The notes beneath the pieces are model-generated. The model had not been told where the DNA came from. It did no database searches and was given only the letters and a program-made list of their open reading frames with translations. A stretch of 64,000 bases of DNA from Phycisphaerae bacterium (GTDB lineage: Bacteria; Planctomycetota; Phycisphaerae; UBA1845), in assembly GCA_029260015.1 (NCBI GenBank), contig JAJDEB010000034.1, forward strand, positions 146,031-210,030, read 5' to 3'. The stretch's first letter is position 1, and each line of letters begins with the position of its first letter. Shown piece by piece: positions 13,228-47,154 of the stretch. A program made the translations under genes and the position numbers.

Positions 13228-13234
13228 TGCGCGT

Positions 13235-18352: not shown

Positions 18353-18384
18353 TATTTTCCTCAGCCGGTTTGGAGTAAACGCAA

Positions 18385-22882: not shown

Positions 22883-24457
22883 TTGGCCGAAAGGAAGCCC
22901 ATGTCAGAATCCACAAGCCATGATCCCAGTGCGACTCTTGGGCATCGCGGAAAATCACCGGGAATTACATGGACACTTACATTCGTGGGAGTAGCCGCCC
23001 TTTATCTGTTTACCGTTGCACCAGGCATCTTGTGGGGGGATTCTGGTGAGGCTCAGTTGCGCGTGTTCACCTGCCAACTTCATGATTTTAGAGAGATCGC
23101 TCGATCGCATGTGACATATTACGCCATCGCGTGTGGACTTACGAAACTGTTTGCAGCCGACCCGATTTACACTGCCAACATGGTTTCCGCGCTGGCGGGG
23201 GCGGCCACCGTTGCCAATCTTACGGTTCTTTGTGCAGGCTTTGTTCGGTCGTGGGTCGCTCTTGCAAGCGGCGCCTTGCTTCTGGCGTTTTCGCACACAC
23301 ATTGGCAAATGAGCGCAGGGGCTGAAGTCGTTTCGTTCTCGACGATGTTTATGACGTTGGAATTGTTGTTTGTTGTTCTGTTCATCCGTCGGAGATCGTT
23401 CATCTACATCCTCCTTGCCGGCTTGGCCGGTGGAATCGGATGGTCGACTCACAATTTCGCGTTACTCATGTGGCCCGCATATTTCGTCATACTTCTCTCA
23501 AAACCCGAGTGCGTGAAGTCGTTAAGTTTCCGGCGGGTGCTCCTCATTGCACTATTTTGGCTTGTAGGTGTGCTACCGCTGATTTGTTCGATGTTCGGTC
23601 AGGTGGAAAACGTTGACAACAATACCGGCACGATGACTTCATTGTTTGTGGGGATCTATGGCAGAAATGTCTTTAATGCAAGCATTTCGGCGGGAATGTT
23701 GTTTCAAGTTCTTGCTTACATTTGTATGAACTTTCCGACGCCACTTCTTTTCCTTCTGCCACTTGGTGTCTGGCGTATCGCTAAAACACAGGATAGGGCC
23801 ATTTCGGTATTCCTGATTGTTGGCGCAGCGACATATTTTGGATTTGCGGCCCGATACAACGTTCCCGATCAATATACGTTCTTAATGCACAGCTATATCT
23901 ACTTTGCGTTGTTTATCGCAGTTGGTGTTGATTGGATTCTCGAACGGTTTGGGCGCAGCTGGTTCAAGGCCCTAACAATTCTGCTGGCGAGTCTAGCACC
24001 CTTGTTCTATGCAATTCTGCCCGAATTGGCAGAGCAACACCTTGTCGGACGGATCAGTCTGCCTTTAAGAGTTTTGCCATATCGCCCCCCGTTTGAATGG
24101 TTCCTTCAACCTTGGCGTTGCGGAAATGACGGAGCTGAACGGTATGCGCAGGAAGTCTTGGAGAGTCTTCCACAGAATGCGGTTCTGATTGTGGACTCAA
24201 CAACCAGCCGTCCTATCAATCTGGTCCAGGGCACTCAGCAATTCCGGCTAGATGTCCGGATGCCCACGGACCATCTCGCTCGGCCTTGGGCGAGTGAATT
24301 CGTCTTGCAAGAAAGCGAAATAGACGAATTGGTGGCACAATCCCTTCTTTTCTGCACGCTCGAAAAAACATGGTATTGGATGGAATGGAACATGGCGGAA
24401 CGATTTGAGGTCGTTCCATTTGGTCTGGTTTACCAAGTCGTCGGTCGGCGCGACTAA
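22883..24457 (+). CDS. Polytopic GT-C-like membrane protein (DUF2723/TMEM260-like)
   Basis: The 524-aa protein has 10 or more hydrophobic segments. The N-terminal block FTVAPGILWGDSGEAQL resembles the DUF2723 opening motif, and a soluble tail follows. An alternative ATG start lies at 22901. Confidence 0.5.
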   Translation: MAERKPMSESTSHDPSATLGHRGKSPGITWTLTFVGVAALYLFTVAPGILWGDSGEAQLRVFTCQLHDFREIARSHVTYYAIACGLTKLFAADPIYTANMVSALAGAATVANLTVLCAGFVRSWVALASGALLLAFSHTHWQMSAGAEVVSFSTMFMTLELLFVVLFIRRRSFIYILLAGLAGGIGWSTHNFALLMWPAYFVILLSKPECVKSLSFRRVLLIALFWLVGVLPLICSMFGQVENVDNNTGTMTSLFVGIYGRNVFNASISAGMLFQVLAYICMNFPTPLLFLLPLGVWRIAKTQDRAISVFLIVGAATYFGFAARYNVPDQYTFLMHSYIYFALFIAVGVDWILERFGRSWFKALTILLASLAPLFYAILPELAEQHLVGRISLPLRVLPYRPPFEWFLQPWRCGNDGAERYAQEVLESLPQNAVLIVDSTTSRPINLVQGTQQFRLDVRMPTDHLARPWASEFVLQESEIDELVAQSLLFCTLEKTWYWMEWNMAERFEVVPFGLVYQVVGRRD

Positions 24458-28446: not shown

Positions 28447-28467
28447 CGACTAGTTCGCCCTACGCCA

Positions 28468-31505: not shown

Positions 31506-31543
31506 ATTCGCGTGCTTGTCTAGTTCCGAATTGAGAGTCATTC

Positions 31544-32761: not shown

Positions 32762-34011
32762 ATTCGCGAATATCCTTGAATAAGAATCTTCCACAAAAAC
32801 CCATCAGAACCGTGGTCGTGTACCGCGTTTGCCAACATTGGCGTGCGCCGATGTTCGCACGCTTAAATGCAAATCCGATGATCGAGCTTTCCGTATTTCA
32901 CGGCAAAGACGTTCCAGGCACAAAACTCATCAACAGCAAAGAATTCGTTGGCTTTGATCATAAGGAGATGTTGACGCTTAGCGGGAAAGTGAAGTCTTCT
33001 GGGCGAAGCGCCCCATGGGTTTGTTGCCCATTTGTTTGGTTGAGCCTGTTTCGACATAGACCAGACGTCATCGTTGTCGAGGGTGCGAGCAATATCTTCA
33101 CTAACATCTTTGTTTTTGCTTACGCTAAGCTCTTTCGCAAGCCAATCGTTTGGTGGACGCTGGGTGTACTTCGTGGGAGGAAATATTCCGGCATTGGCAA
33201 GATTTATCGACGACTTGTAGTTGCCATGGAAAAAAACGCGGCTGCCCTGTTGGGGTATAGTTCGGCGGCATTGTCCTATTTTGAGAGAACGGGTTATTCG
33301 AAGGAACGGTTTTTCCGGGCGGTCAATGTTGTTGATACTGATCGGGTAAAGTCAGACATCAACGAATCTACCGAGCGAGTCGCAATCCTCCGAAAAAAAC
33401 TGGGATTGGACAATGCAAAAGTGATCCTATTTGTCGGAGCGCTTACGTTCGAGAAAAAGATCCACCGTCTGATTCATTCCTTCGCAAACGTCAGCCAGCG
33501 GTTTCCTGATGCACGCCTTGTTGTCGTTGGCGACGGCTCAGCCCGCAAGCAACTTGAATCGCTTTGTGATGAGGTTGGATGCAGCGATAGATCCACATTT
33601 AGCGGTCAGGTCATTGGCCAGATTTCGGATTACTACGAATTGGGAACCGTGTTTGTCCTTCCCGGTTTGGGCGGTTTGGCGATCAGTGAGGCCATGACCC
33701 ACGGATTGCCGATCATTTGTAGCCGCGGTGATGGGTGCGAGGTCGATCTTGTGCGAAATGGAGACACAGGATTCCGCATTGATTCAGACGACGACGATAC
33801 TATTACGCAGTTCATTGAAGATAAGCTGGCCGAATTACTCAATGATGATCAGGCCCGCCAGAAAATGAGTGATTCTGCGCGGAGCGTCATCAAAGACGAA
33901 CACAACGTCAACACTTACATCGCAAACATCGTCGATGCCATCGTCTACGCTCGAACAAAAGTGCGTTCGACCCCCTATCCAAACGTGATTGTGGATGAAG
34001 AAACTTCTTAA
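32758..34011 (+). CDS. Glycosyltransferase family 4 (GT-B)
   Basis: Blocks ILFVGALTFEKK and VFVLPGLGGLAISEAMTHGLPIICSRGDG are present. The start overlaps the upstream stop. Confidence 0.8.
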   Translation: MNSRISLNKNLPQKPIRTVVVYRVCQHWRAPMFARLNANPMIELSVFHGKDVPGTKLINSKEFVGFDHKEMLTLSGKVKSSGRSAPWVCCPFVWLSLFRHRPDVIVVEGASNIFTNIFVFAYAKLFRKPIVWWTLGVLRGRKYSGIGKIYRRLVVAMEKNAAALLGYSSAALSYFERTGYSKERFFRAVNVVDTDRVKSDINESTERVAILRKKLGLDNAKVILFVGALTFEKKIHRLIHSFANVSQRFPDARLVVVGDGSARKQLESLCDEVGCSDRSTFSGQVIGQISDYYELGTVFVLPGLGGLAISEAMTHGLPIICSRGDGCEVDLVRNGDTGFRIDSDDDDTITQFIEDKLAELLNDDQARQKMSDSARSVIKDEHNVNTYIANIVDAIVYARTKVRSTPYPNVIVDEETS

Positions 34012-34540
34012 AAAACTTCGGATGTTCTGCCTGCTGACGTTTCGCTACCGTTTGAAATCATGCGGACAAGAATCGTACATCGGGTACAGCGTATTCATTC
34101 GACCGAACGTCTGTTCAATCGGATACAAGAGTTTTGTAGGGCCGCGTTGTTGGTTGGCTTCTGAGGTTGCGATCGGTAATTTCGTCATGCTTGCAGGTCG
34201 GGTGGCCATCGTTGGCGGTGATCATGCGTACGACAAGGTTGGCGTTCCAAGTATCGAAGCCGGTCGAGCAGTAAACAAACCAGTAATCGTTGGCGACGAC
34301 AGTTGGATTGGTCATGGTGCGATTGTGATGCACGGTATAACCATTGGCGAAGGTGCAATCGTTGCTGCAGGAGCCGTTGTCACAAAGGACATTGAATCCT
34401 ATTCAATTGCTGCAGGTGTTCCGGCAACCAAGATTCGTATGCGGTTTGAACCGGAGGAAATCGAAGTACATCGAAAGGCGTTGGCCGCCCGCCGCGCCAA
34501 ACTTGGATTGAAAGACGTTACGCAGCAAGACGCGATATAA
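33989..34540 (+). CDS. Hexapeptide-repeat (LbH) sugar O-/N-acetyltransferase
   Basis: Hexapeptide repeats read IGNFVMLAGRVAIVGGDH and VIVGDDSWIGHGAIVMHGITIGEGAIVAAGAVV. An ATG alternative start lies at 33995. Confidence 0.8.
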   Translation: MWMKKLLKKLRMFCLLTFRYRLKSCGQESYIGYSVFIRPNVCSIGYKSFVGPRCWLASEVAIGNFVMLAGRVAIVGGDHAYDKVGVPSIEAGRAVNKPVIVGDDSWIGHGAIVMHGITIGEGAIVAAGAVVTKDIESYSIAAGVPATKIRMRFEPEEIEVHRKALAARRAKLGLKDVTQQDAI

Positions 34541-34598
34541 TTGCAGTTAGTCTTTTCGTTGTTGCGCTAGTATCAACTTCTGTGATCGAAACTTCATC

Positions 34599-36629
34599 AT
34601 GGGTCTGCTCAATTCGGCGCGACTTATTCGCCACCTTGGCATTGCGACGTTTATCCGTCGTGGCTTCCATGTTGCTCGAGCCCGATCGGGATGGCTAGCG
34701 CGACTTGACCCGACCGATGGTTTCGGAGCGGCGGACCTTGCGTCTCATTTGCGAAAGGGGTGCTTGGTCGGGCAAATGCTCAGGGATCGGCGGGCCGACG
34801 CGATTCCGTTTTTCTTCGACTCGTCATTCACTCGCGACTTCGCCCCCATTCTCGAAAAGCTGATTCCGCTGGAAGATCGTGAGCGATTGCTTCAACAGGC
34901 CAACGGGCTGGAGTCCGGGAGGGTTCGATTCTTCAGTCATTGGGATGCCGATCTGGGCGATCCGATCGATTGGCACGTTAACCCTCAATCCAACAAGCGG
35001 TGGGATTCAGAGTCCCACTGGTGCCAGATTCGCAATCTCGATCCTGCGATGGGCGATGTCAAAATGGTGTGGGAAGCCAGTCGTTTTTCCCATGCGTTTC
35101 TGCTTGTTCGCGCGTTTGCCCTGACCAACGAGCGATCTTACCTGGAACTTTGCTTGAAGCTCATCGAAGAGTGGATCGACGCAAATCCGCCCGCGCGTGG
35201 CGTTCATTGGAATTGCGGGCAGGAGACGGCGTTTCGACTGATAGGATGGTGCTTTGCGCTGCACGCATCATACGCGGCTGACGTGCTGGATCGTGACCGA
35301 TTCGCGAAGATCCTGGCATCTATTTATCGACAGACCCAGCGGATCGAACGTCATATCGGGTTCGCTCGTTCGATCGCTAACAACCATGCCTTGAGTGAAG
35401 CTGCCGGCTTGTATACCGTCGGGCGTTTGTTTCCCGAGTTCGACAATTCGAAGCGATGGATTCGAAAGGGCAAGCGAATCCTGTGCACCGAAATCCTCCG
35501 ACAGGTTTTTGCGGACGGCTCATATATTCAGCATTCGATGAATTACCATCGGGTCATGCTGCACGATTGCCTATGGGCGATGCGGTTAGCCGACATCTAC
35601 GACGATCCATTTCCCGATGCGGTCGTCAATCGACTGCGACGCGCGGTTAAGTTCGCGAGAGACATGCAGGACGCAGAAAGCGGCCGATTGCCGAATTATG
35701 GATCCAATGATGGTGCCCAAGTCCTACCGTTGACCTCGTGCGATTACCTTGACCATCGTCCAGTGCTGCAGTCGTGGTCCCATCAGTTGGACGGTGAACG
35801 CGCCTTTGAAACCGGGCCGTGGGATGAGGAGGCTCTTTGGCTGTTCGGTACTTCAGCCCTTCGTGACACTTGCGACAACATCAAACCCAAGAGTGCACGT
35901 TACGAAGTTGGCGGATACTACACGCTTCGAGGACAAAACAGTTGGGCGATGGTCCGTTGTCATTCATACAAATGGCGACCGGCTGAAGCCGACATGCTGC
36001 ATTTGGACCTTTGGCACAAGGGCGAAAACGTCTTGCGCGACGGTGGGTCTTTCAGCTACAACTGCCCCGCCCCATTTGGCACCTATTTCAAATCGACTGC
36101 CGCCCACAACACGGTGACCGTTGAAGGGCAAGACCAAATGGTCAAAGGCCCCCGCTTCATGTGGTTTGACTGGGTCAAGTCGCGACTCATCGCGTATCAG
36201 CCCTCCGACGGTTCAGCAGGAGGGCACTTTGAAGCTGAGCATTTCGGTTATCGCAAGCGATTCGGAGTCACCCATCGCCGCCGGGTTGAATACGCCCTAC
36301 CGGATCATTGGATGGTCGTTGACCAAATCTTGGGTGATGTCTCTGTCAATGCGGCTGTCACCTGGCACATTCCGGACGTGCCCTATGATTGGAATGAAGA
36401 GACTTTGACGTTGATGTTTGAAGTTGGATCGGGTCATGTTCAATTGTCGTTCGTCGTCGAAGATGGGACGATTGACTCAACGATAATCCATCGAGCGTTT
36501 GAAAGCGACAAGTCCGCATCCGGTTGGGAGTCGCTATACTACGGCGAGAAACAACCGCGACCAGCCATTCAGATCGCCCTCCGATTCGAGGCGAAAACCA
36601 AACTGATCACAAACATTCACTGCAATTAG
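34599..36629 (+). CDS. Heparinase II/III-family protein (alpha/alpha toroid plus beta-sandwich)
   Basis: Blocks NNHALSEAAGLY, YHRVMLHD, HLDLWHKGENVLRDGGSFSY and TAAHNTVTV are typical of the Hepar_II_III family as I recall it. Confidence 0.75.
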   Translation: MGLLNSARLIRHLGIATFIRRGFHVARARSGWLARLDPTDGFGAADLASHLRKGCLVGQMLRDRRADAIPFFFDSSFTRDFAPILEKLIPLEDRERLLQQANGLESGRVRFFSHWDADLGDPIDWHVNPQSNKRWDSESHWCQIRNLDPAMGDVKMVWEASRFSHAFLLVRAFALTNERSYLELCLKLIEEWIDANPPARGVHWNCGQETAFRLIGWCFALHASYAADVLDRDRFAKILASIYRQTQRIERHIGFARSIANNHALSEAAGLYTVGRLFPEFDNSKRWIRKGKRILCTEILRQVFADGSYIQHSMNYHRVMLHDCLWAMRLADIYDDPFPDAVVNRLRRAVKFARDMQDAESGRLPNYGSNDGAQVLPLTSCDYLDHRPVLQSWSHQLDGERAFETGPWDEEALWLFGTSALRDTCDNIKPKSARYEVGGYYTLRGQNSWAMVRCHSYKWRPAEADMLHLDLWHKGENVLRDGGSFSYNCPAPFGTYFKSTAAHNTVTVEGQDQMVKGPRFMWFDWVKSRLIAYQPSDGSAGGHFEAEHFGYRKRFGVTHRRRVEYALPDHWMVVDQILGDVSVNAAVTWHIPDVPYDWNEETLTLMFEVGSGHVQLSFVVEDGTIDSTIIHRAFESDKSASGWESLYYGEKQPRPAIQIALRFEAKTKLITNIHCN

Positions 36630-36645
36630 GAATCAAATCGCACAT

Positions 36646-37878
36646 ATGCATGTAGCCTATATTCATCAGCATTTTTCGACACGAAGCGGCATGACGGGTA
36701 CGCGTTCATTCGAACTCAGCCAACGTCTCATCGAAGCTGGGCACAAGGTCACGATTGTCTCCGGGGTCAACGAGCTTAGCCCCATCAGAGGCGAGAAGGG
36801 CGCACGCGTTTCGGAGACCGAGGTCGATGGCATCCATGTGCTATCAGTGTCAGAACCGTACAAGAATTCGATGGGATTCGTGCAGCGCGTGCGTGCGTTT
36901 GGGCGATTTGCGAGAACGGCTGAGCAGCTTGTCAAGAAGACCGATGCCGATCTCGTATTTGCGACATCAACGCCGCTGACCGTTGGCATCCCGGGAATGA
37001 AGGGAGCAAGGCATCTCGGCGTTCCGTTCGTTTTTGAGGTTCGCGACCTGTGGCCGGAAATCCCCATCGCGATTGGCGTCGTCAAGAATCCATTGCTCAA
37101 ATGGTATTTAAAGCACCTAGAAGTCAAAATCTATCGGGCGGCAAAATGGATCATCGCCTTGTCACCGGGGATTCGCGAAGGCATCTGCAACACCGGGTAT
37201 CCCAAATTGCAAACCTCCATGATTCCAAACGCCTCTGACCTCGATGTCTTCAAACCCGATCCCACCGGCATCGACGATCCGCAGTATGGCTGCCCCGAAG
37301 ATTTTAAGCTGGTCTTCACCGGTGCACACGGGCTGGCCAACGGACTCGATGCCGTGCTGGATGCGATTGTGGAATTGAAGAACCGAGGTGAAACGGGGAT
37401 TCGTTTTAACTTCATCGGCAGCGGGGGACAGAAGCAAGGATTGATGGAGCGATGTGATCGAGAAGGTCTTAGCGAATGGGCCAATTGGATTGAACCGATG
37501 CCCAAGCAGCAGCTGGCTGAAATCCTCCCGCGGATGGATGTGGGAATGATGATTCTCAAGAACATCCCCGCATTTTATTACGGGACTTCACCGAATAAGT
37601 TTTTTGACTATATTGCAAGCGGTCTACCGGTGCTGAACAACTATCCCGGCTGGCTTGCGGGAATGATCGACGAGAACCAATGCGGTAAGGTTGTAGAACC
37701 GAACGACCCAAAAGCCTTCGCAGATGCGGTGGTTTGGATGCGCGATCACCCTGACGAACTAAAAGCAATGGGACCAAGAGCGCGTAAACTTGCCGAGACG
37801 CAGTTTTCGCGTCAGGTCTTGGGTGAGCAGTTTGTGCGAATACTGGAACAGGTTTACGAGCAACATAAATCCAAGTGA
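36646..37878 (+). CDS. Glycosyltransferase family 4, WbuB-like
   Basis: The N-terminal block MHVAYIHQHFSTRSGMTGTRSFE and the block NKFFDYIASGLPVLNNYPGW are present. Confidence 0.8.
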   Translation: MHVAYIHQHFSTRSGMTGTRSFELSQRLIEAGHKVTIVSGVNELSPIRGEKGARVSETEVDGIHVLSVSEPYKNSMGFVQRVRAFGRFARTAEQLVKKTDADLVFATSTPLTVGIPGMKGARHLGVPFVFEVRDLWPEIPIAIGVVKNPLLKWYLKHLEVKIYRAAKWIIALSPGIREGICNTGYPKLQTSMIPNASDLDVFKPDPTGIDDPQYGCPEDFKLVFTGAHGLANGLDAVLDAIVELKNRGETGIRFNFIGSGGQKQGLMERCDREGLSEWANWIEPMPKQQLAEILPRMDVGMMILKNIPAFYYGTSPNKFFDYIASGLPVLNNYPGWLAGMIDENQCGKVVEPNDPKAFADAVVWMRDHPDELKAMGPRARKLAETQFSRQVLGEQFVRILEQVYEQHKSK

Positions 37879-38438
37879 AAAAGCAAATCACCGAACATTT
37901 GAAAGCCGCTGAAAAGCTCACCGATTCAATTCCGCTTCTCGAACGAATCTGCGATCGGATTATCGAGTGCTTTCGCAGCGGCAATCGTCTCTACCTGGTT
38001 GGAAACGGTGGAAGCGCCGCCGATGCCCAGCACATTGCCGCGGAGTTGATCGGGCGGTTCAAGATTGACCGCGCCCCACTTCCCGCGATTGCGCTGACGA
38101 CTGATACGTCGGCGTTGACCGCGATCTCCAATGACTTGGGCGGTGACGTGGTTTTTGAAAGACAGGTCGAAGGCCTGGTCAACAAGGGCGACATCGTGTG
38201 GGCGCTAAGCGTCTCGGGCAATTCGCCAAACATCATCGCAGCCGTCAAGACAGCTCGGAAGAGAGGTGCCTGCGTGATTGGGTTTACGAGTACCAAAGGT
38301 GAAGCGCTCGCCGAATTCTGTGACGAATGCCTCCGTGCGGCTCACACCAGCAGTGACCGGGTCCAAGAAGTCCACGAGTTGGCGTATCATTTGATCTGCG
38401 AGCGCATTGAAGCAACATTTGCAGATGCAACCGAATAA
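37875..38438 (+). CDS. gmhA: SIS-domain sugar-phosphate isomerase, GmhA-like
   Basis: Blocks LYLVGNGGSAADAQHIAAELIGRF, PAIALTTDTSALTAISND and VWALSVSGNSPNIIAAV are present. The GTG start overlaps the upstream stop (GTGA). Confidence 0.7.
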   Translation: MKKQITEHLKAAEKLTDSIPLLERICDRIIECFRSGNRLYLVGNGGSAADAQHIAAELIGRFKIDRAPLPAIALTTDTSALTAISNDLGGDVVFERQVEGLVNKGDIVWALSVSGNSPNIIAAVKTARKRGACVIGFTSTKGEALAEFCDECLRAAHTSSDRVQEVHELAYHLICERIEATFADATE

Positions 38439-38487
38439 GTGATCAACCGCTCTAACTTCAACTGCAAAATACGACCAAAGTTGCAAC

Positions 38488-39417
38488 ATGTCTGAATCGC
38501 AAACATCTTCACATCCGACAAAACTTGATCCACTTTGCACTGATCCTGATCAGATCGAGCGGATGTGGTACGTGCCACCGGAAACACCCATTCAAAGCGG
38601 GTGGATGTTGTTCAGCGAAACGCTCGTGCTAAGTCAGTTACAAGGCTGTTTCGATCAACCCGATAAAGTGAAATTCACGCCAGGTTGGCGCACGATTGCT
38701 TGGGGTATTCGCGCCATCATGGCGGTCGGGCAGGCATTGATCATGCTGTTTTGCATGATTCCCATTTTGAGTTGGTTCATGTACATGCTCTCCCGCAACA
38801 TGCCCCGCAATATCGCAGGATTTTTTGTTCGCGGGTGCTACTGGAAGGCGAAGCTGCGACACTTGGGTGTAGACACCTTCATCGACCAAGGGGTGGAATT
38901 CACTCGGGCGCACACCGTTGAAATCGGAAATCGATGTCACATCGATCGCAATGTTCTCTTTACGGTTGGCAATGATGACGGCTACATTCGCGTCGGCGAC
39001 TATACCTTCATTGGACCTTGGTGCCATATCGCGGGCCGAGGCGGCGTTGAGATTGGCCGATGTGTCGGATTGTCGGCCCGTGTACATATCTATTCAGTAT
39101 CGAACCTGCCCTTTCACGCGGAACGTCTGGGTGAATTGGTTTCGATGTCTCATAGCGTTCCCGTCGATTTTCAAAACACGGTGGAGGGTAAAGTCGAGAT
39201 TGGTGACTACGTCGTGATCGGGATGGGATCTTTGGTCCTGCCAGGCGCTTCACTGGGGCGCGGCGCGATTGTTCACCCTTATGCTGAATTGCGCACTTCG
39301 TTTGACAAGTTCGCGATTGTCTCAGGGCATGGACGGGCCAAACGCATTGGTTGGCGGCGTCCATTGCGACTCGATCCAAGACTGCAGCCAGAAAGCATGA
39401 CCGAGCAAGAAACATGA
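38488..39417 (+). CDS. Membrane-anchored hexapeptide-repeat acyltransferase
   Basis: A central TM segment reads IRAIMAVGQALIMLFCMIPILSWFMYML. LbH repeats follow (VEIGNRCHIDRNVLF, IRVGDYTFIGPWCHI, VEIGRCVGLSARVHI, VEIGDYVVIGMGSLV). Confidence 0.7.
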   Translation: MSESQTSSHPTKLDPLCTDPDQIERMWYVPPETPIQSGWMLFSETLVLSQLQGCFDQPDKVKFTPGWRTIAWGIRAIMAVGQALIMLFCMIPILSWFMYMLSRNMPRNIAGFFVRGCYWKAKLRHLGVDTFIDQGVEFTRAHTVEIGNRCHIDRNVLFTVGNDDGYIRVGDYTFIGPWCHIAGRGGVEIGRCVGLSARVHIYSVSNLPFHAERLGELVSMSHSVPVDFQNTVEGKVEIGDYVVIGMGSLVLPGASLGRGAIVHPYAELRTSFDKFAIVSGHGRAKRIGWRRPLRLDPRLQPESMTEQET

Positions 39418-41252
39418 GTACAGCAAAGTTGACGTTGGCAACAACGCTGCATGAATTGTCCGAACCGCCCACAACCATCGAGATTGCGCGCGCATCAAAA
39501 CAATTAGCGGGACTCGACTGCAACGAAGCCGGACTCAAACCACTCACGATCGGAATCGCAAGTTCGTTTACGTTTGATCCGATCATCAAGAACCTGATTG
39601 TCCGAGGGTACAGCGATGGTCTAAAACTGGAATCGTACCTCGCGCCCTATGGGCAGTACATTCCGGAACTTATGTCGCCGCAAAGTGGCCTGGTCGTGGC
39701 TAAGTCAGACGTCGTGGTGCTGGCGATTCGGCTTCAAGATGCATGCCCTGCACTCTACGAGCGGTTTAATTCCCAAGACGCAGCCTCGATTGAATCCATC
39801 TGCAATGAATGGACAAACACATTCCGCCAGGCGCTCAAGGCCTTTCGCAAACATTCGGATACACCCATTCTTTGCTGCAACTACGAGGTGCCCGCCTACC
39901 CCGCTCTCGGTTTGGCAGACGCCAAGTGTACGCCATCGCAAAACGAAACGATCGCTTCATTGAACAGGTCGCTGCAGGAAACGGCATTGCAAGTTGGCAA
40001 TGTCCATATTGTCGACATCGATGCACTTGCTAGCCGCGTGGGTCGTACTCGTATGGTTGATCCCAAACTTTGGTTCTGGGGTCGTATTCCCATCGCGAGT
40101 GAGCATCAATGGGCGTATGCAGGCGAAGTATTGCGCGTGCTGCGGGCCGTCTCTGGCAAGTCGCGAAAGGTGCTCGCACTGGATTGCGACAACACGCTAT
40201 GGGGGGGCGTGCTTGGTGACGTTGGCAAGGATGGCATCGCCCTTGGGCATGACTATCCCGGTAACGCCTTCGTCGCGCTTCAGAAGCGGGCGCTGGACCT
40301 CTATCATCGCGGCGTCGTGCTCGTCGTCGCGAGCAAGAACGAACATGCCGCGGTCAAGGACGTCTTCGAGAATCATCCCGAGATGGTATTGCGGCCAGAA
40401 CACATCAGCCATTTCGCGGTGAACTGGGAGCCCAAACCGCAGAATCTTCAACGGGTGGCTGATACGCTCAATTTGAATCTTGACAGTTTCGTATTTTTGG
40501 ACGACCACCCTGTCGAATGCGCCATGATGCGGGAAATGTTACCACAAGTTCTAACCGTCAATTTGCCCGAAGATCCGTCGCGATTTGCAGAAACGCTCGC
40601 CCGTCTCGACTGTTTCGATCAACTTGGCATCAGCGATGAAGATCGACGACGCGGCGAGATGTATCGCAAGGAAGCCGCCCGCGCCGAATTCAAAGCCGAG
40701 TCCGACGATCTCGAATCATTCTTTGTCGGTTTGGACATGCGTATCAACATCGCGTGCAACGACGAAACCAATGTGGCTCGAGCCGCCCAACTGACCCAGC
40801 GCACGAATCAATTCAACATGACGACGCGGCGACGCACTGAATCTGAGATGATCGACCTGATGCGTGCGGAAGACACCGAAGTGTGTACCATCCGGCTGAC
40901 CGATCGGTTCGGCGACAACGGGATTGTGGGGCTGGCGATTGTCCGCAGGGAAGGCAATAATGCGGTATTAGATACGTTCCTGATGAGTTGCAGGGTGCTG
41001 GGACGGTCCGTTGAAAATGCCTTTCTCGCTTGGATCGGGACACAAATGCTGCAACGTGGAGGGACGACATTGGAAGGTCGATTCATTGAAACGCTCAAGA
41101 ACAAACCCTTCGCCGGATTTTTTGAATCCTGGGGAATGACGCTCGCCGAGAAGTCCGACGACGGATCGCAACGATGGGTCTATGATCTTAATTCGGCAGC
41201 AGACGCTTTGACGATTCCCAAGTGGATTCAAATTGAAACGCAGTCATCATAA
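39414..41252 (+). CDS. FkbH-like HAD-IIIC family protein (glyceryl-ACP loading type)
   Basis: The HAD motif I block is VLALDCDNTLWGGVLGD. VVASKNEH and FVFLDDHPVE are also present, with a C-terminal GNAT-like part. I moved the start to the ATG at 39414, which overlaps the upstream stop (ATGA). Confidence 0.8.
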   Translation: MSTAKLTLATTLHELSEPPTTIEIARASKQLAGLDCNEAGLKPLTIGIASSFTFDPIIKNLIVRGYSDGLKLESYLAPYGQYIPELMSPQSGLVVAKSDVVVLAIRLQDACPALYERFNSQDAASIESICNEWTNTFRQALKAFRKHSDTPILCCNYEVPAYPALGLADAKCTPSQNETIASLNRSLQETALQVGNVHIVDIDALASRVGRTRMVDPKLWFWGRIPIASEHQWAYAGEVLRVLRAVSGKSRKVLALDCDNTLWGGVLGDVGKDGIALGHDYPGNAFVALQKRALDLYHRGVVLVVASKNEHAAVKDVFENHPEMVLRPEHISHFAVNWEPKPQNLQRVADTLNLNLDSFVFLDDHPVECAMMREMLPQVLTVNLPEDPSRFAETLARLDCFDQLGISDEDRRRGEMYRKEAARAEFKAESDDLESFFVGLDMRINIACNDETNVARAAQLTQRTNQFNMTTRRRTESEMIDLMRAEDTEVCTIRLTDRFGDNGIVGLAIVRREGNNAVLDTFLMSCRVLGRSVENAFLAWIGTQMLQRGGTTLEGRFIETLKNKPFAGFFESWGMTLAEKSDDGSQRWVYDLNSAADALTIPKWIQIETQSS

Positions 41253-41276
41253 TTTTTTAACAACCAAGGCCGAATC

Positions 41277-41525
41277 ATGAGTCAGGAAAATCGGGCGAAA
41301 CTCATCGAGATTGTCGCCACGCTCTTGGAAACGGATGCGTCGAGCATCGACAACAATAGTTCGCCGGAAACGATTGAACATTGGGACAGCATGAATCACC
41401 TAAACATTTGTGTCGCGGTGGAGCAGGAATTCGGCATTCAGCTTCAAACCGACGAGATGGCCACCATCCAAAACGTCGGTGATCTCGTGACCATGCTCAA
41501 TCGTAAGAATGTGGCGTGCGCGTGA
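41277..41525 (+). CDS. Acyl carrier protein
   Basis: The 82-aa protein is acidic. It has a phosphopantetheine-site block, IEHWDSMNHLNI (DSx motif), in a four-helix layout. Confidence 0.85.
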   Translation: MSQENRAKLIEIVATLLETDASSIDNNSSPETIEHWDSMNHLNICVAVEQEFGIQLQTDEMATIQNVGDLVTMLNRKNVACA

Positions 41526-41553
41526 CGACGCGAGTTAAGAGCAACCGTTACTC

Positions 41554-42441
41554 ATGATTGATCAGTTGAATTCATCAAAACGCATCATCAACGCCATCAG
41601 CGTCGATGTCGAAGATTGGCTGCAATCGACGATTGATTCAAAACTTCCGTTGACCAATCGCTTCCACATCAACACGCGAAAAATCCTGGAAGCCTTTGAA
41701 GCCCGAAACGTGAAGGGCACATTTTTTGTTCTGGGTCTTGCCGCAGAGCAAGCGCCTGACATGGTTCGCGAAATCCACGATGCCGGCCACGAAGTGCAAT
41801 CGCATGGATATGGGCATGAACTGGTGACGACGATTTCGCCAGACCACTTCCGCAATGACATCGAACGTTCAAAGAAAATCCTCGAAGATATCATCGGGGT
41901 CGAGGTGACGGGTTATCGGGCGCCTGCGTTCACGATTACTCAGAAAACGCTTTGGGCGCTCGACATTCTGTTGGACCTTGGATTCAAATACGATTCTTCG
42001 ATTTTCCCCGTGCGCATGAAGCGGTACGGGATTGAAGGGTCGCCCTGGTATCCATACATCGCCAAGACACCCAAAGGCCGCGAGATTCTGGAAATACCAG
42101 TTGGCTCGTTTGAAGCGGCGGGCCGACGATGGGCTACAGGCGGAGGCGGTTATTTCCGACTACTCCCCTATTCAGTGCTGCGCCGTGCAGTGCGTCAGAT
42201 GAACGATCATCAGCATTCCGCCACCATTTATATGCATCCATATGAATACGACCCGATCGAGTTCGCCGAGCTGGACTATCCGGTTCCCATGAAAATCAGA
42301 CTTCATCAAGGGCTCGGTCGTCGCGGTTTTCCCAGAAAAGTCAACCGACTGCTGACCGACTTTCGATTTGGCACGATGCAGGATGTCATCGACACGCTTG
42401 GAGAGCTAGAGACGCATGAACATCGTAGTCTTGACGGCTAA
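41554..42441 (+). CDS. Polysaccharide deacetylase family protein (NodB fold plus DUF3473-like tail; resembles the PEP-CTERM-locus subtype)
   Basis: Blocks AISVDVEDWLQ, FFVLGLAAEQAPDMVREIHDAGHEVQSHGYGH and TGYRAPAF are present. Confidence 0.8.
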   Translation: MIDQLNSSKRIINAISVDVEDWLQSTIDSKLPLTNRFHINTRKILEAFEARNVKGTFFVLGLAAEQAPDMVREIHDAGHEVQSHGYGHELVTTISPDHFRNDIERSKKILEDIIGVEVTGYRAPAFTITQKTLWALDILLDLGFKYDSSIFPVRMKRYGIEGSPWYPYIAKTPKGREILEIPVGSFEAAGRRWATGGGGYFRLLPYSVLRRAVRQMNDHQHSATIYMHPYEYDPIEFAELDYPVPMKIRLHQGLGRRGFPRKVNRLLTDFRFGTMQDVIDTLGELETHEHRSLDG

Positions 42442-43198
42442 CGTGTCACAATACTTGCCGGACTTCTTTGCCCGTTTTTTGGAATCGCAGGCATCCAGTA
42501 CGCAAGCCGTTTTCGTCGTGCCCCCACGCTATGGAAAGGAATCGACCGGGGACTTGGCGCGGAAATACATCAAGGCATTTGGTATTTGGAATTTTTCGCA
42601 CGTCGTCCTGCGAACCGTCAAGACCAAGGTGCTCAACATCCTGACGGGCGGTGGCCGCAACGGTTCTTTCTATTCCGTTCAAGGCGTTTGTAAACATCAC
42701 GGGATCGCTTGCGAAGAAGCCGACGATGTCAATGCCGAAGAATTTCGAAACAAGTTACGAGAGATGAAAACCGACCTGCTTGTTTCGGTTTCTTGTCCGC
42801 AACTATTCCGCAAACCGCTCATCGAACTTCCTCCGCTGGGCACGCTCAATGTTCACGGTGCCCAACTGCCCAAGTACCGGGGCATCCTGCCGAGCTTCTG
42901 GATGATGGCCAACGGCGAGGCGGAAGCTGGCGTCACGGTGTTTCTGGTTAACGAGGACATCGATGCCGGCGATGTGGTGGAGTCCTCGACATTCCCAATT
43001 GACCCGCATGAATCTCTCGATGGCTTCATCAAGCGGAGCAAACTCATCGCCTGCGACACGCTGCTGCGTGCGATCAAGAGAATTGAAAAAGGCGACTGTC
43101 AGACCACCCCGCTTAGCATGAAAGACGGAAGTTATTTTTCATTCCCAACACGGGCCAGTTATCGTGAATTTCTCAGGCGTGGGCGGCGATTGTGGTAA
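42416..43198 (+). CDS. Formyltransferase-domain protein (Fmt/ArnA N-terminal-like)
   Basis: The block LNVHGAQLPKYRGILPSFWMMANGEAEAGVTVFLVNEDIDAGDVV is present. The gene overlaps the deacetylase gene by 26 nt. Confidence 0.8.
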   Translation: MNIVVLTANVSQYLPDFFARFLESQASSTQAVFVVPPRYGKESTGDLARKYIKAFGIWNFSHVVLRTVKTKVLNILTGGGRNGSFYSVQGVCKHHGIACEEADDVNAEEFRNKLREMKTDLLVSVSCPQLFRKPLIELPPLGTLNVHGAQLPKYRGILPSFWMMANGEAEAGVTVFLVNEDIDAGDVVESSTFPIDPHESLDGFIKRSKLIACDTLLRAIKRIEKGDCQTTPLSMKDGSYFSFPTRASYREFLRRGRRLW

Positions 43199-43222
43199 TA
43201 TCTGGCTGAACACTTGGGATCT

Positions 43223-43237
43223 TGGCACAAGTCTGGC
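43223..43237 (+). promoter_or_regulatory. Possible sigma-54 type -24/-12 element (TGGCAC-N5-TGGC)
   Basis: I read TGGCACAAGTCTGGC, which is one mismatch from TGGCAC-N5-TTGC. It lies about 160 nt upstream of the sxtJ-like start, in the only 200-nt gap in this part of the island. Confidence 0.2.
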
Positions 43238-43398
43238 GGATTGTGCAAAAGCAGTTCTGATTGAGCGGTCGCGAAGGATCGATATACATTTGCCGGACAA
43301 GTGAATTATCGATTAACATAACGCGACTTAGAGGCTGACGTCTGCAAAATAATTGATATGCCTCGCATGATCATGATTGTGCGAAGAGTTGGGGAATT

Positions 43399-43836
43399 AT
43401 GATACAGGTCAATCGAAATCCTGATGCGAAAACGCTTCGTTCCTTCGGGATTGCAATGGTGTTTGGGTTTGGGATCATTGGCGGCCTTTTTTGGTATATC
43501 GGGCCCGACCCCAACAGTTTTTCATGGCAAGGCGTTACATCTCAGAAAACGGCGATCGGTATCTGGATTCTGGGCGCGTTGCTCGCTCTGGTCTCGATTG
43601 GACCGCGCGGCATCTCCGTTCCCGTCTACGTCGGATGGATGTCCATCGGAATGTTTTTGGGGGGGATCATGACAGTCGTTCTAATGACCGTCCTATTCGT
43701 CGTGCTCCTTCCAATCTTCACGCTGATTCGATTCAAAGATCCGCTACGGATGAAATTGAAACCACCGGGTGAAAGCTATTGGGAAGATTATCGCGAGCAC
43801 GAACCGACACTGGAACGAACCGCCCGTCCATTCTAA
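43399..43836 (+). CDS. SxtJ-like small membrane protein
   Basis: The 145-aa protein has three or four TM helices. It sits immediately upstream of a carbamoyltransferase, as sxtJ homologues typically do. Confidence 0.55.
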   Translation: MIQVNRNPDAKTLRSFGIAMVFGFGIIGGLFWYIGPDPNSFSWQGVTSQKTAIGIWILGALLALVSIGPRGISVPVYVGWMSIGMFLGGIMTVVLMTVLFVVLLPIFTLIRFKDPLRMKLKPPGESYWEDYREHEPTLERTARPF

Positions 43837-43907
43837 TTTTCGAGAGTCAGGTTTGATTGGCCCGGCTGGTTTATTGCTGTTTTCAATGGGAAGATGAATT
43901 CTTAGCC

Positions 43908-45674
43908 ATGTATATTCTAGGAATATCCTGCTATTACCACGATTCCGGTGCTGCGCTTCTCAAAGATGGGAAGCTGGTCGCGGCGGCGGAGGAAGAACGG
44001 TTCAATCGCAAAAAGCACTACAGCGAGTTTCCCAAACTTGCCGTTGAATATTGCCTTGAGGAAGCAGGCATCACGATCGACGATGTCGATTACATCTGCT
44101 TTTATGAAAAACCCCTGGTCAAGTTTTCGCGTATCCTCGAAACGATTCTGGCACGCTGGCCGCTGACTTATTGGAATTGGGTCAAAAGCATGCCCGTTTG
44201 GCTGCTGACCAAGCTGCACATCGGGCGGACCATTCAGCGCGAACTCGACACGGACAAGGATATCTATTTCTGCAAGCATCACCTGTCGCACGCAGCCAGT
44301 GCGTTTCTGGTTTCGCCGTATGAAAATGCAGCGATCATCACGGCTGACGGTGTGGGCGAATGGGCGACGACGGCTTGGGGTGTCGGTCGTGGCAGCGAGA
44401 TTGAACTACAAAAAGAGATTAGCTTTCCGCATTCGGTTGGTCTGCTGTTCAGCGCGATCACTGCGTACCTTGGTTTCCGCGTCAACGATGCCGAATGGAA
44501 GGTGATGGGACTTGCCCCTTATGGCAAGCCAACTTACCTCGATAAGTTTCGTGAAGTGGTCGACCTGCGTGAAGACGGCAGTTTTCGATTGAAGATGCAG
44601 TACTTCACGCACACGCATTCCACGTCAAAAATGTTCAATCATCGCTGGGAAGAATTGTTCGGTCGCCCCGTACGTCCCAAAGAAACCGAACTGGACCAAT
44701 TCCATATGGACATCGCCCACTCCGGCCAGAAAATGGTCGAAGAAATCATGGTCGCGATGGCCAAGCATGTTCACAAAACGACGGGCATGGACAACCTCTG
44801 CATCGCCGGCGGTGTCGGACTCAACTGTGTTGCCAACTGGCGTATCCTGAAGGAATCCGGATTCAAGGAGATCTTCATTCAGCCGGCAGCGGGCGATTCG
44901 GGTGCAGCGTTGGGGGCTGCATTTTACATGTACAACACAGTCCTCAAGAAACCGCGCGAATTTGAAATGCGTCATGCGTATTGGGGACCGGCATTCGACG
45001 ACGACAGCATTCGCAAAGCACTTGAGCGATCCGGCCTGTCGTTCACCTATCACGATCGTGAAGAAGCCCTGCTCGAACAGACGGCGGCTGCGATTGACGA
45101 TGGCAAGGTGATCGCGTGGTATCAGGGGCGGTTGGAGTTCGGACCACGGGCGCTGGGCAATCGTTCTTTGGTTGCCGATGCGCGCAATCCTAAGATGAAG
45201 GACATTATCAACGCCAAGGTCAAATTCCGCGAGGCGTTTCGTCCGTTTGCACCGAGCGTCCTGCGCGAACATGCCCATGAATACTTTGAAATGCCCGAAG
45301 GGATGGACGCGCCATTTATGCTCTTGGTGCCGAACGTGCTGCCCCATCGGCACGCAGAAGTTCCTGCGATCACGCACGAAGACGGGACCGGCCGCGTTCA
45401 AACGGTGACTGAAGAAGACAACGGGCGTTACTATCGGTTGATCAAGGCATTCTACAATCGCACCGGTACACCGCTGGTCATCAATACATCTTTCAATGTT
45501 CGCGGGGAGCCGATCGTGCTGACGCCGCAGGACGCGATTCATACGTTTATGAACACCGGAATCGATTGGCTGGTGATGGGCAACTTTGTGATTTCGGAAA
45601 AACCCGACGTCGTCGATTACGAAGCCGGTATGAAACGAAGTATTGAACTGGAAGCCAGTTCGTTGATCAAATAA
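43908..45674 (+). CDS. NodU/CmcH-family carbamoyltransferase
   Basis: Starting from the ATG at 43908 gives MYILGISCYYHDSGAALL. Further blocks are HHLSHAASAF, GGVGLNCVAN, AAGDSGAALGAA and VINTSFNVRGEPIV. Confidence 0.9.
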   Translation: MYILGISCYYHDSGAALLKDGKLVAAAEEERFNRKKHYSEFPKLAVEYCLEEAGITIDDVDYICFYEKPLVKFSRILETILARWPLTYWNWVKSMPVWLLTKLHIGRTIQRELDTDKDIYFCKHHLSHAASAFLVSPYENAAIITADGVGEWATTAWGVGRGSEIELQKEISFPHSVGLLFSAITAYLGFRVNDAEWKVMGLAPYGKPTYLDKFREVVDLREDGSFRLKMQYFTHTHSTSKMFNHRWEELFGRPVRPKETELDQFHMDIAHSGQKMVEEIMVAMAKHVHKTTGMDNLCIAGGVGLNCVANWRILKESGFKEIFIQPAAGDSGAALGAAFYMYNTVLKKPREFEMRHAYWGPAFDDDSIRKALERSGLSFTYHDREEALLEQTAAAIDDGKVIAWYQGRLEFGPRALGNRSLVADARNPKMKDIINAKVKFREAFRPFAPSVLREHAHEYFEMPEGMDAPFMLLVPNVLPHRHAEVPAITHEDGTGRVQTVTEEDNGRYYRLIKAFYNRTGTPLVINTSFNVRGEPIVLTPQDAIHTFMNTGIDWLVMGNFVISEKPDVVDYEAGMKRSIELEASSLIK

Positions 45675-45712
45675 ACAAAACGCAGTCTCTGTAAACTGGA
45701 AAACAACGAGTC

Positions 45713-45871
45713 ATGGCCAAGCAATCACTATTCAAAGAGTTCTTCGCCTTTATCAAGCACGAGAAGAAATGGTGGATGATTCCTTTGGTCACCGTCTTGT
45801 TATTGGTCGGTGGTTTGATTCTTTTCAGTAGTACATCACCGCTTGCGCCGTTTATCTATCCGTTATTCTGA
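45713..45871 (+). CDS. 52-aa DUF5989/SxtK-like membrane peptide (below the ORF-track cutoff)
   Basis: I read MAKQSLFKEFFAFIKHEKKWWMIPLVTVLLLVGGLILFSSTSPLAPFIYPLF followed by TGA at 45869-45871. It starts 38 nt after the carbamoyltransferase stop. Confidence 0.65.
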   Translation: MAKQSLFKEFFAFIKHEKKWWMIPLVTVLLLVGGLILFSSTSPLAPFIYPLF

Positions 45872-45997
45872 TTCCTCGGTTACCGATCCATTCAATGGTA
45901 TCCGTGTGCGACTTTCGAGAATGCGCAGGTGGTCTTGCGCATCTTCCAGTTGACGCGGCGCCGTCCCAACGATTTGACCTCTAGAGAGTGAATTTCC

Positions 45998-47092
45998 ATG
46001 AAAATCATCAACATTTGCGGTGCCCGTCCCAACTTCATGAAAATTGCGCCGCTTATGCGTGCCTACAAGAAACATGGCAATATCGAACCGATGCTGATTC
46101 ACACGGGCCAGCACTATGACGCGAATATGTCTGACCTGTTCTTCAAGCAACTGGGCATTCCGGAACCAGATATTAATCTCGAGATCGGATCAGCCAGCCA
46201 TGCCGTTCAGACGGCGGAGATCATGAAGCGGTTTGAAACCGTCGCGATTGAAGAGAAGCCCGATTGGGTGGTCGTGGTTGGCGACGTCAACAGCACGATC
46301 GCCTGTGCGTTGGTTGCGACCAAACTCGGAATCAAGGTCGCGCATGTCGAAGCCGGTCTACGAAGTTTCGATCGCAACATGCCCGAGGAGATCAACCGTG
46401 TGCTGACCGATTCGATTTCGGACTTGCTATTCGTGACCGAACCGAGCGGCATGGAAAACCTAAAGAATGAAGGTGTTGCCGATGACAAAGTTCATTTTGT
46501 CGGTAACGTCATGATCGACACGCTCCGCGCCAATTTTGACAAAGCGCAGGAATCAAAAATTGTCGAGTCGCTCAATCTGGAAGCAAAAGGCTATAACGTC
46601 GTGACGCTCCACCGCCCCAGCAATGTTGACGACGTCACCACCATGAGTCGCATTGTCGATGTCATCGATGAAATTCAGAAAGACTTACCCACGGTCTTCC
46701 CGATGCATCCCCGTACCAAACACAACCTCGGCAAGCTCGGGTTGGCCGACCGACTTGAAGCCATGGAAAATCTTAAAATTATCGAACCGGTCGGTTATCT
46801 AGATTTCCTGAAGCTCACCGGCAGTGCAGCCGTCGTCCTGACCGACTCCGGCGGCATTCAAGAAGAGGCGACCATCCTCGGCGTCTGGTGCCTCACCCTT
46901 CGCGAAAACACCGAACGACCAGTGACCATCGATCAGGGAACCAACACACTAGTCGGAACCGATCCGACCAAGATACTCGACGCATACCGCAACTGTCGCA
47001 GCCAAGCCGTCGGTGATGCCCAGACCCCCGAGAAATGGGATGGCAAAGCGGCAGAACGCATCGCAGACATCCTCGCCAAGCAACCCGCCTGA
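45998..47092 (+). CDS. wecB: UDP-N-acetylglucosamine 2-epimerase (non-hydrolysing), divergent paralogue 2
   Basis: Blocks ICGARPNFMKIAP, HTGQHYD, GDVNSTIA, AHVEAGLRSFD, PEEINR and LTDSGGIQEEATILGVWCLTLR are present. Confidence 0.9.
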   Translation: MKIINICGARPNFMKIAPLMRAYKKHGNIEPMLIHTGQHYDANMSDLFFKQLGIPEPDINLEIGSASHAVQTAEIMKRFETVAIEEKPDWVVVVGDVNSTIACALVATKLGIKVAHVEAGLRSFDRNMPEEINRVLTDSISDLLFVTEPSGMENLKNEGVADDKVHFVGNVMIDTLRANFDKAQESKIVESLNLEAKGYNVVTLHRPSNVDDVTTMSRIVDVIDEIQKDLPTVFPMHPRTKHNLGKLGLADRLEAMENLKIIEPVGYLDFLKLTGSAAVVLTDSGGIQEEATILGVWCLTLRENTERPVTIDQGTNTLVGTDPTKILDAYRNCRSQAVGDAQTPEKWDGKAAERIADILAKQPA

Positions 47093-47133
47093 TACCTTAA
47101 TCTCTAATATCGAATTTGAGTCTTTCGAGACCC

Positions 47134-47154
47134 GACCGGGCAACCGGTTTGTTT
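47134..47154 (+). terminator. Candidate intrinsic terminator between convergent genes
   Basis: The sequence GACCGG-GCAA-CCGGTT forms a 6-bp stem including one G-U pair, with a GNRA loop, followed by TGTTT. It lies 41 nt after the wecB-2 stop. Confidence 0.3.

Follow-up and report, generated by a model that had tools for sequence, protein, structure and literature searches.

We analyzed a 64,000-nt stretch of DNA (here called the window) from a Phycisphaerae bacterium (Planctomycetota; Phycisphaerae; UBA1845; assembly GCA_029260015.1, contig JAJDEB010000034.1, positions 146,031-210,030, forward strand), an organism whose genome is 5.36 Mb in size and 94.6% complete. Our analysis centers on three genes at 38488-41525, which encode a membrane-anchored hexapeptide-repeat (LbH) acyltransferase, an FkbH-like enzyme of the type that loads glyceryl units, and an acyl carrier protein (ACP), and which are located within a Wzx/Wzy polysaccharide locus. 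We consider it fairly probable that these genes form a glyceryl-carrier module that is free of any polyketide synthase (PKS) and that would tailor the polysaccharide before export. Our findings thereby support an earlier reading, made from the sequence alone, in which an ACP-delivered glyceroyl decoration was proposed. The three genes are as follows:

38488..39417, + strand: membrane-anchored hexapeptide-repeat (LbH) acyltransferase, 309 aa (PF00132, hydropathy, family alignment, AF2 model)
39414..41252, + strand: FkbH-like glyceryl loader, 612 aa from ATG (TIGR01686, TIGR01681, PF21211)
41277..41525, + strand: dedicated acyl carrier protein, 82 aa, pI 4.25 (PF00550)

All three were found as open reading frames (ORFs) on the + strand, tightly spaced as the sequence-only reading had described, with the LbH stop codon and the FkbH ATG overlapping as ATGA, and with 24 nt between the FkbH stop codon and the start of the ACP gene. 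The FkbH ORF as listed opens at a TTG (39351), and an in-frame ATG at 39414 yields a protein of 612 aa, the length seen in its relatives; this ATG, overlapping the LbH stop codon, is most likely the start of the gene.

The cassette is part of a run of 19 co-directional genes (22883-47092), which bears out its predicted placement inside a Wzx/Wzy polysaccharide locus, and intergenic gaps across 24825-43198 of this run are 58 nt or less. Other genes of the run referred to below are:

22883..24457, + strand: GT-C glycosyltransferase (PMT_2/TMEM260-like), at the head of the locus (Pfam)
28468-30000, + strand: Wzx
30000-31505, + strand: Wzy
41554..42441, + strand: cytoplasmic CE4 (NodB-type) polysaccharide deacetylase with DUF3473 (TIGR03006, PF01522, PF11959)
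42416..43198, + strand: formyltransferase-like protein, Formyl_trans_N only (PF00551, 82 bits; best NCBIfam matches far under cut-off)

In addition, the run encodes three GT1/GT4 transferases, a small soluble LbH acetyltransferase, a heparinase II/III-like protein, a GmhA-like SIS protein, an SxtJ-like membrane protein, a carbamoyltransferase and two UDP-GlcNAc 2-epimerases, and a gene for a WbpM/PglF-type dehydratase is located immediately upstream on the opposite strand. The earlier observation that ketosynthase (KS), ketoreductase and AMP-ligase genes are missing also held, with none present among the scanned ORFs of ≥140 aa between 19 and 47 kb. The window as a whole contains neither a KS nor a thiolase-fold gene, the KS matches of this genome lying elsewhere, and no member of an FkbG/I/K-type set (3-hydroxyacyl-CoA dehydrogenase, acyl-CoA dehydrogenase, O-methyltransferase) was found among the window's ORFs. 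A promoter and terminator scan of 33500-47500 gave counts not above those of shuffled sequence, and is uninformative on operon structure.

Profile searches confirmed that the second gene encodes an FkbH-like HAD-IIIC protein, with scores of 312.3 bits against TIGR01686 (cut-off 146.65; 314.5 bits in a genome-level profile search), 57.1 bits against TIGR01681 (cut-off 35.75) and 34.1 bits against the FkbH_N model PF21211 (cut-off 27), and it is the only FkbH in the genome. The motif quoted in the sequence-only reading, VLALDCDNTLWGGVLGD, is present, with D257, D259 and T261 encoded at 40182-40196. An alignment of 15 FkbH relatives (41-74% identity) demonstrated that the catalytic Asp and Cys residues are kept, since the HAD motifs D257-x-D259-x-T261, S307, K341 and D363-D364, together with Cys526, are invariant. 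The codon of Cys526 is at 40989-40991, within an S-C-R-V-L-G-R motif that recovers 585 relatives, and we assign this residue as the family Cys by its invariance among these 15 relatives. The closest relatives of the loader are labelled Planctomycetota or Phycisphaerae.

The AlphaFold model of the loader (mean pLDDT 84.5) has three parts, i.e., FkbH_N, HAD-IIIC and a C-terminal domain with a GNAT fold. The N-terminal and HAD domains match 3slr, the N-terminal part of BF1531 from Bacteroides fragilis and the sole solved relative of this protein, with a target-normalised TM-score of 0.85 (Foldseek), and the C-terminal 170 residues resemble GNAT acetyltransferases such as RimI (TM-score about 0.7, Foldseek). 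Cys526 is modelled between the last strand of the central sheet and the next helix, directly ahead of an R-x-x-G-x-S loop; in GNATs this loop holds the pantetheine pyrophosphate, and a pantetheine thioester binds there. The modelled position of Cys526 would be a sensible place for a thioester intermediate that is passed to a carrier protein.

The third gene was also correctly read as an ACP of 82 aa with a DSM phosphopantetheine site: it scores 29.1 bits against PF00550 (cut-off 20.8), and the serine, S38, is encoded at 41388-41390 within a W-D-S-M-x-H motif. Among 75 FkbH-adjacent ACPs, W36 and S38 are present in every sequence, D37 in 74 and His41 in 60, with position 39 occupied by Leu or Met, and on this conservation FkbH-adjacent ACPs appear as a recognisable subfamily. 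The genome encodes one AcpS-type phosphopantetheinyl transferase (64.2 bits, contig C30), and its housekeeping ACP gene adjoins a KS gene about 120 kb from the cassette. Its sole large synthase is PfaA-like, contains three tandem ACP domains and is encoded on contig C26, separate from the contig of the window. There, at C26:6987-15950, two giant ORFs (2269 and 2364 aa) with KS domains and three tandem ACP domains resemble a PfaA-type polyunsaturated fatty acid or olefin synthase and are unrelated to the cassette.

The first gene of the cassette was described as a hexapeptide acyltransferase with a transmembrane anchor, and both parts of this description are upheld. The protein scores 47.6 bits against PF00132 (cut-off 27), and hydropathy supports a membrane segment, the best 19-residue Kyte-Doolittle window (2.34, residues 76-94) being inside a hydrophobic stretch of 32 residues (70-101) that has a conserved Gln and Pro mid-way. 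Since six K/R and no D/E residues follow this stretch, the LbH domain is predicted to be cytoplasmic and accessible to the ACP. In the AF2 model (pLDDT 78.8, with the beta-helix region moderate at 62-77), helices at 65-89 and 92-104 are broken at the conserved Pro, which is compatible with either a single pass or a hairpin. Alignment of the family showed a conserved N-terminal module of ~120 residues (about 25-125) with W-Y-V-P-P and L-Q-G-C motifs, invariant H151, H222 and H263, and an equally invariant, basic C-terminal G-W-R-R-P motif (residues 288-292). The family is sharply bounded, with matches running down to E 6e-70 and then jumping to 1e-12, and by this measure the membrane LbH represents a small, discrete family in the Planctomycetota that had previously not been filed. 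The closest PDB entry, both by sequence (phmmer, E 3.5e-8) and by fold, is AntD (3vbi and others), an N-acyltransferase of Bacillus cereus that places a hydroxy-acyl group on dTDP-4-amino-4,6-dideoxyglucose (identity of the PDB entry according to PMC6031040). In the phmmer alignment, which is a weak match, AntD S84, which like D94 was mutated in the AntD structures, aligns with S196 of the LbH protein, a position that is variable in the LbH family. Against the models of the acyl-ACP-dependent enzymes LpxA and LpxD the protein scores 25.8 bits (TIGR01852, cut-off 231) and 23.9 bits (TIGR01853, cut-off 242.5); it is not a member of either, so the case for ACP use by this protein is one of gene linkage.

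We surveyed this linkage in two directions. From the FkbH side, we examined 80 loci around FkbH relatives in species-representative genomes, counting partners from direct phmmer matches because single-linkage clustering merged LbH, DegT and formyltransferase through a fusion in one locus (L011); ORF-based gene calls lost FkbH in 8 loci. This survey confirmed that the cassette recurs in other glycan loci: an ACP gene is within 2.5 kb of FkbH in 73 of the 80 loci, glycan genes are present in 50 and KS in 4, two of these four having the KS 9.5 kb away, and in the 20 closest loci FkbH is immediately preceded by the membrane LbH. From the LbH side, LbH, FkbH and an ORF of 76-78 aa are consecutive in all three contigs surveyed. 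One of these three, L081, contains the bare LbH-FkbH-ACP cassette followed by a WecA-like transferase, in a neighbourhood that is otherwise non-glycan. We also examined 151 genomes of the window's order, for which we give no statistic, as kin are not independent. LbH was found in 36 of these genomes and FkbH in 53, and all 36 LbH genomes contain FkbH, i.e., the nesting of LbH genomes within FkbH genomes is complete in this sample; the two genes are within 1.3 kb of each other in 29 of the 36. The cassette is patchy in the window's own family and genus (of the genus's two other genomes, one was found to contain it), which is the pattern expected where a surface-glycan locus is variable. Together, these genomic surveys suggest that use of a glyceryl-carrier module in glycan loci is widespread.

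The chemistry of the loader has precedents. OzmB and the FkbH-like enzymes of tetronate and methoxymalonyl pathways convert 1,3-bisphosphoglycerate to phosphoglyceryl-S-enzyme, glyceryl-S-enzyme and finally glyceryl-ACP, and the characterised members of the family described in these studies all begin from 1,3-bisphosphoglycerate (PMC9057759, PMC7489565). With the FkbH/OzmB/Mad7-Mad14-type glyceryl-ACP synthases the window's genes share TIGR01686, the HAD motifs, the conserved Cys and a dedicated small ACP, and the window's loader is the long form with an N-terminal FkbH_N domain. Unlike the methoxymalonyl and tetronate pathways, however, the window contains no PKS, no FabH-like condensing enzyme and no FkbG/I/K oxidation or methylation genes. 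In those pathways the glyceryl unit becomes a polyketide building block, whereas the consumer proposed here is a sugar acyltransferase, and the glyceryl unit would become a glycan substituent.

Based on this family knowledge, the FkbH-like enzyme would take 1,3-bisphosphoglycerate from glycolysis and form a phosphoglyceryl thioester on Cys526; its HAD domain would strip the phosphate, and the glyceryl group would pass to the pantetheine arm of the adjacent holo-ACP, primed by the genome's AcpS-type enzyme. As gene linkage suggests, the LbH domain on the cytoplasmic side would then use glyceryl-ACP to acylate a sugar linked to either a nucleotide or a polyprenyl at the membrane's inner face, and we infer that this protein takes its acyl group from the ACP and not from a CoA thioester. 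More tentatively, the acceptor amine may be exposed by the cytoplasmic CE4 deacetylase, giving a net swap of N-acetyl for N-glyceroyl that would formally resemble LpxC/LpxD or NodB/NodA. Since no VOC protein, methyltransferase, dehydratase or reductase accompanies this copy of the cassette, the acyl group should be unmodified D-glyceryl.

The acceptor is probably the amine freed by the CE4 deacetylase, to judge from the genes next to the cassette. The deacetylase gene begins 28 nt after the ACP gene, and its product has no hydrophobic segment by hydropathy and passes the model of the XrtA-system polysaccharide deacetylase (TIGR03006, 281.8 bits, equivalog cut-off 276.2). Ten related loci have a CE4 homologue no more than 2.5 kb from FkbH, mostly directly upstream of LbH, and in at least eight relatives CE4 adjoins LbH with no formyltransferase. 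A DegT aminotransferase is fused to LbH in L011 (L011:7740-9941, one open frame) and is near LbH in L083 and others. With CE4 beside the cassette, AntD the protein of nearest structure, and DegT in some relatives joined to LbH or encoded close to it, we favour N-acylation of a freed or newly made sugar amine. As to the formyltransferase-like gene, it overlaps the deacetylase gene by 26 nt and has a counterpart within 2.5 kb of FkbH in 5 of the 80 loci; its product is a possible second tailoring step, with an uncertain tie to the cassette. We also considered DegT-LbH fusion as a general feature and rejected it, as the fusion is unique to L011, and where LbH is extended in other relatives it is by a GNAT domain at the C terminus or by unrelated N-terminal sequence.

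Several points weigh against an ACP-fed LbH enzyme that acylates a freed amine. AntD is a weak match to LbH (about 20% identity, TM 0.47-0.66), AntD D94 aligns with N206 of the LbH protein in the same weak phmmer alignment, and the other close matches are O-acetyltransferases, i.e., WbbJ (the best NCBIfam match), maltose/galactoside acetyltransferases and Vat. Most characterised sugar LbH acyltransferases use CoA thioesters. The LbH histidines fit O- and N-acyl transfer alike, the coupled formyltransferase-like enzyme could use the freed amine instead, about half of the LbH loci have no deacetylase or aminotransferase nearby, and DegT has no homologue in the window. LbH and FkbH are not adjacent in 7 of the 36 genomes that contain both, being on different contigs in five and far apart on one contig in two (68 kb and 493 kb). 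Finally, we found no paper in the open literature that says what an FkbH-like gene of a glycan locus does.

With these points taken into account, N- and O-acylation stand nearly even within the proposed model, N-acylation being slightly ahead. A tentative alternative keeps the same donor and has LbH O-glyceroylate a sugar hydroxyl, as in glycerate-bearing exopolysaccharides, with the deacetylase and the formyltransferase-like protein carrying out a separate acetyl-to-formyl swap. The matches to WbbJ and to maltose/galactoside O-acetyltransferases point in this direction, as do the 26-nt overlap of the deacetylase and formyltransferase-like genes, the minimal L081 cassette with neither deacetylase nor aminotransferase alongside, and the invariant H151, H222 and H263, which fit the general base of O-acetyltransferases. 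These histidines do not discriminate, however: N-acyltransferases such as PglD also use a histidine base. AntD is the top match by sequence and fold, CE4 is beside LbH with no formyltransferase in at least eight relatives, and DegT is fused or adjacent in some loci, all of which argue for an amine as the acceptor.

It is also conceivable, although we think it unlikely, that the substrate of the module is not the repeat unit but one sugar carried on polyprenyl phosphate, edited in an Arn-like side pathway. CE4 would then de-N-acetylate a polyprenyl-P-HexNAc, as ArnD does, the membrane LbH would N-glyceroylate it from glyceryl-ACP, and the product would be flipped and transferred to polymer or protein in the periplasm by the PMT_2/TMEM260-like GT-C. 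Such a pathway would account for the membrane anchor of LbH. It would also account for the PMT_2/TMEM260-like GT-C, encoded in the window's locus and, in 17 related loci, directly after the ACP gene (less than 2.5 kb from FkbH), and for the ArnC-like GT2 that several relatives encode a few kb downstream. The window's GT-C is 28% identical over 487 residues to that at L011:12277-13803 (BLASTP, E 1e-44, full-length). Against this, the window contains no GT2 homologue.

We regard it as improbable that LbH is an ordinary acetyl-CoA-dependent sugar acetyltransferase, with glyceryl-ACP used by another enzyme of the locus, for a lipid or for a small molecule. CoA donors are indeed usual for characterised sugar LbH enzymes, some relatives carry extra acyltransferases (GNAT fused to LbH or stand-alone), and the two genes are apart in 7 of 36 genomes. 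However, LbH is the only acyltransferase candidate in the window's cassette, and without it glyceryl-ACP would have no outlet; the LbH family was found only in FkbH genomes (36 of 36, adjacent in 29); and L081 contains LbH, FkbH and ACP only, ahead of the WecA-like gene. The basic GWRRP motif of LbH set against the acidic ACP (pI 4.25) is suggestive only.

The proposed glyceryl donor has also to be seen alongside the accessory genes of related loci, in which, judged by gene content, the FkbH-ACP pair acts as a core around which the accessory genes vary. Of these loci, 20 contain a VOC protein most similar to methylmalonyl-CoA epimerase and 13 contain MaoC with SDR, and other relatives contain methyltransferases, a PLP decarboxylase, a 3-hydroxyacyl-CoA dehydrogenase with a thiolase-like protein, a 2-hydroxyacyl-CoA dehydratase with its activator, or GNAT domains fused to LbH. 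VOC, DegT, GT2, GNAT and the methyltransferase of the closest relative have no homologue in the 64-kb window, so the window's copy represents a minimal form of the cassette with unmodified glyceryl as its simplest product, and we infer that the acyl group is plain glyceryl. That FkbH loads another acyl phosphate, or that glyceryl is converted on the ACP (e.g., to lactyl or hydroxymalonyl) by an enzyme encoded elsewhere, is in our view very improbable. The MaoC with SDR, methyltransferases, dehydrogenase with thiolase-like protein, and dehydratase with activator of relatives speak for such a conversion, as does the methyltransferase between ACP and deacetylase in the closest relative; on the other side, the window has no homologue of these tailoring genes, and characterised FkbH members start from 1,3-bisphosphoglycerate (PMC9057759, PMC7489565). 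That the cassette belongs to a polyketide, tetronate or methoxymalonyl-type pathway merely placed in a glycan locus can hardly be credited, since, although FkbH-ACP pairs were first described in such pathways and a PfaA-like synthase is present on contig C26, that synthase is on a different contig, KS, a FabH-like enzyme and FkbG/I/K homologues are all missing from the window, glycan genes outnumber KS by 50 to 4 in the 80 related loci, and the FkbH gene is within co-directional glycan genes with gaps of 58 nt or less.

Individual relatives show how these accessories are arranged. At L004:1414-1842 and in about 20 loci from many phyla, a 130-aa protein of the VOC/glyoxalase fold is encoded directly upstream of FkbH; its best match is methylmalonyl-CoA epimerase (66 bits, below the cut-off), and a possible role for it is epimerisation of the acyl-ACP at C2. 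In L013 (L013:8347-9921), L009, L022, L016 and others, the membrane LbH is extended at its C terminus by a GNAT domain of about 215 aa. The clade of L031, L041, L043 and L047 has a 2-hydroxyglutaryl-CoA-dehydratase-type enzyme and a BcrAD/BadFG activator ATPase encoded directly upstream of FkbH-ACP (e.g., L041:3044-4213 and L031:9057-9860), which hints at radical dehydration of a carrier-bound 2-hydroxy acid. The closest relative, L001 (JANQQE010000015.1), has a 74% identical FkbH and the same gene order, with a 330-aa SAM methyltransferase (L001:12120-13112) between ACP and deacetylase where the window has a 28-nt spacer at 41525-41554. On this difference in gene content, the decorations of the two strains are probably distinguished by a methyl group. 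The L001 record bears the title 'Alphaproteobacteria bacterium', but its synteny with the window (74-79% protein identity) and the fact that every other close relative belongs to the Planctomycetota make a binning or classification error the probable source of this label.

The proposed acylation can be compared with three known systems. AntD, the nearest solved protein to LbH, likewise puts a short hydroxy-acyl group onto a sugar amine; it is, however, a soluble protein of 205 aa with a CoA thioester donor, whereas the window's LbH has an extra conserved N-terminal module of 120 residues and a membrane segment. LpxC/LpxD and NodB/NodA (NodF) carry out de-N-acetylation followed by N-acylation from acyl-ACP, with LpxD an LbH enzyme and NodF a dedicated ACP, and the window carries a NodU-like carbamoyltransferase. 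This likeness is in logic only: the deacetylase of the window belongs to CE4, unlike LpxC, and a C3 hydroxy acid would take the place of a fatty acid. The third system is the flagellin-glycan locus of Campylobacter jejuni, which is said to contain an FkbH-domain gene, cj1302 (PMC7099621), the only published FkbH-domain gene in a glycan locus that we found in the open literature. This gene is a pseudogene in strain 12664, whose flagella lacked sugars with di-O-methylglyceric acid (PMC7099621), and the sugar of strain NCTC 11168 is N-(2,3-di-O-methylglyceroyl) pseudaminic acid (PMC3068675). The points in common with the window are the FkbH-domain gene in a glycan locus and the N-linked, glycerate-derived acyl group on a sugar, the latter being what is proposed for the window. 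By its published description, the C. jejuni system differs in that its acceptor is a nonulosonic acid on flagellin and its acyl group is di-O-methylated. Our search of the open literature found no biochemical assignment for cj1302, and the gene behind the N-glyceroyl pseudaminic acid of Tannerella forsythia has been called elusive (PMC6120980).

Other features of the window and of its relatives were noted alongside the cassette. As the deacetylase passes the XrtA-system model, the locus may make an exosortase-associated polysaccharide; a PEP-CTERM protein is encoded at 56317-57342 of the window, and two exosortase genes are present elsewhere in the genome (C27:150857-151630 and C26:63797-64501). 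Downstream of the formyltransferase-like gene, the SxtJ-like membrane protein is followed by the NodU/CmcH-type carbamoyltransferase (43399-45674), a pair that recurs in L001 and L018 and suggests an O-carbamoyl group on the same glycan. The gene for the GmhA-like SIS protein (37875-38438; TIGR00441, 171 bits, under the cut-off of 209) overlaps the upstream GT4 gene by 4 nt and is 49 nt ahead of LbH, and the window has no other heptose genes. Neither an 831-aa ORF (25951-28446, + strand) between an epimerase gene and Wzx nor a 406-aa ORF (21437-22657, - strand) beside the dehydratase gene has a Pfam or NCBIfam match. A che-type operon (12346-18957, - strand) adjoins the glycan island, and CheX, CheR and CheB genes (L081:3899-7894) are directly upstream of the minimal LbH-FkbH-ACP cassette, which may be a coincidence.

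Within the FkbH and ACP families the loader and the carrier are unexceptional, and what sets the system apart is their partners: FkbH-type glyceryl-ACP chemistry would here be recruited for glycan tailoring, together with a dedicated family of membrane-anchored LbH proteins. Surface sugars of bacteria are known to bear N- and O-glyceroyl substituents. The module offers a testable genetic route to these groups, consisting of a PKS-type loader, a carrier protein and a dedicated acyltransferase fed from glycolysis, and it points to the membrane-anchored LbH family as the transferase in the Planctomycetota. If this is true, glycerate-type decorations would become predictable from genomes, and glycan tailoring would have an acyl-ACP donor route beyond those of lipid A and Nod factors.

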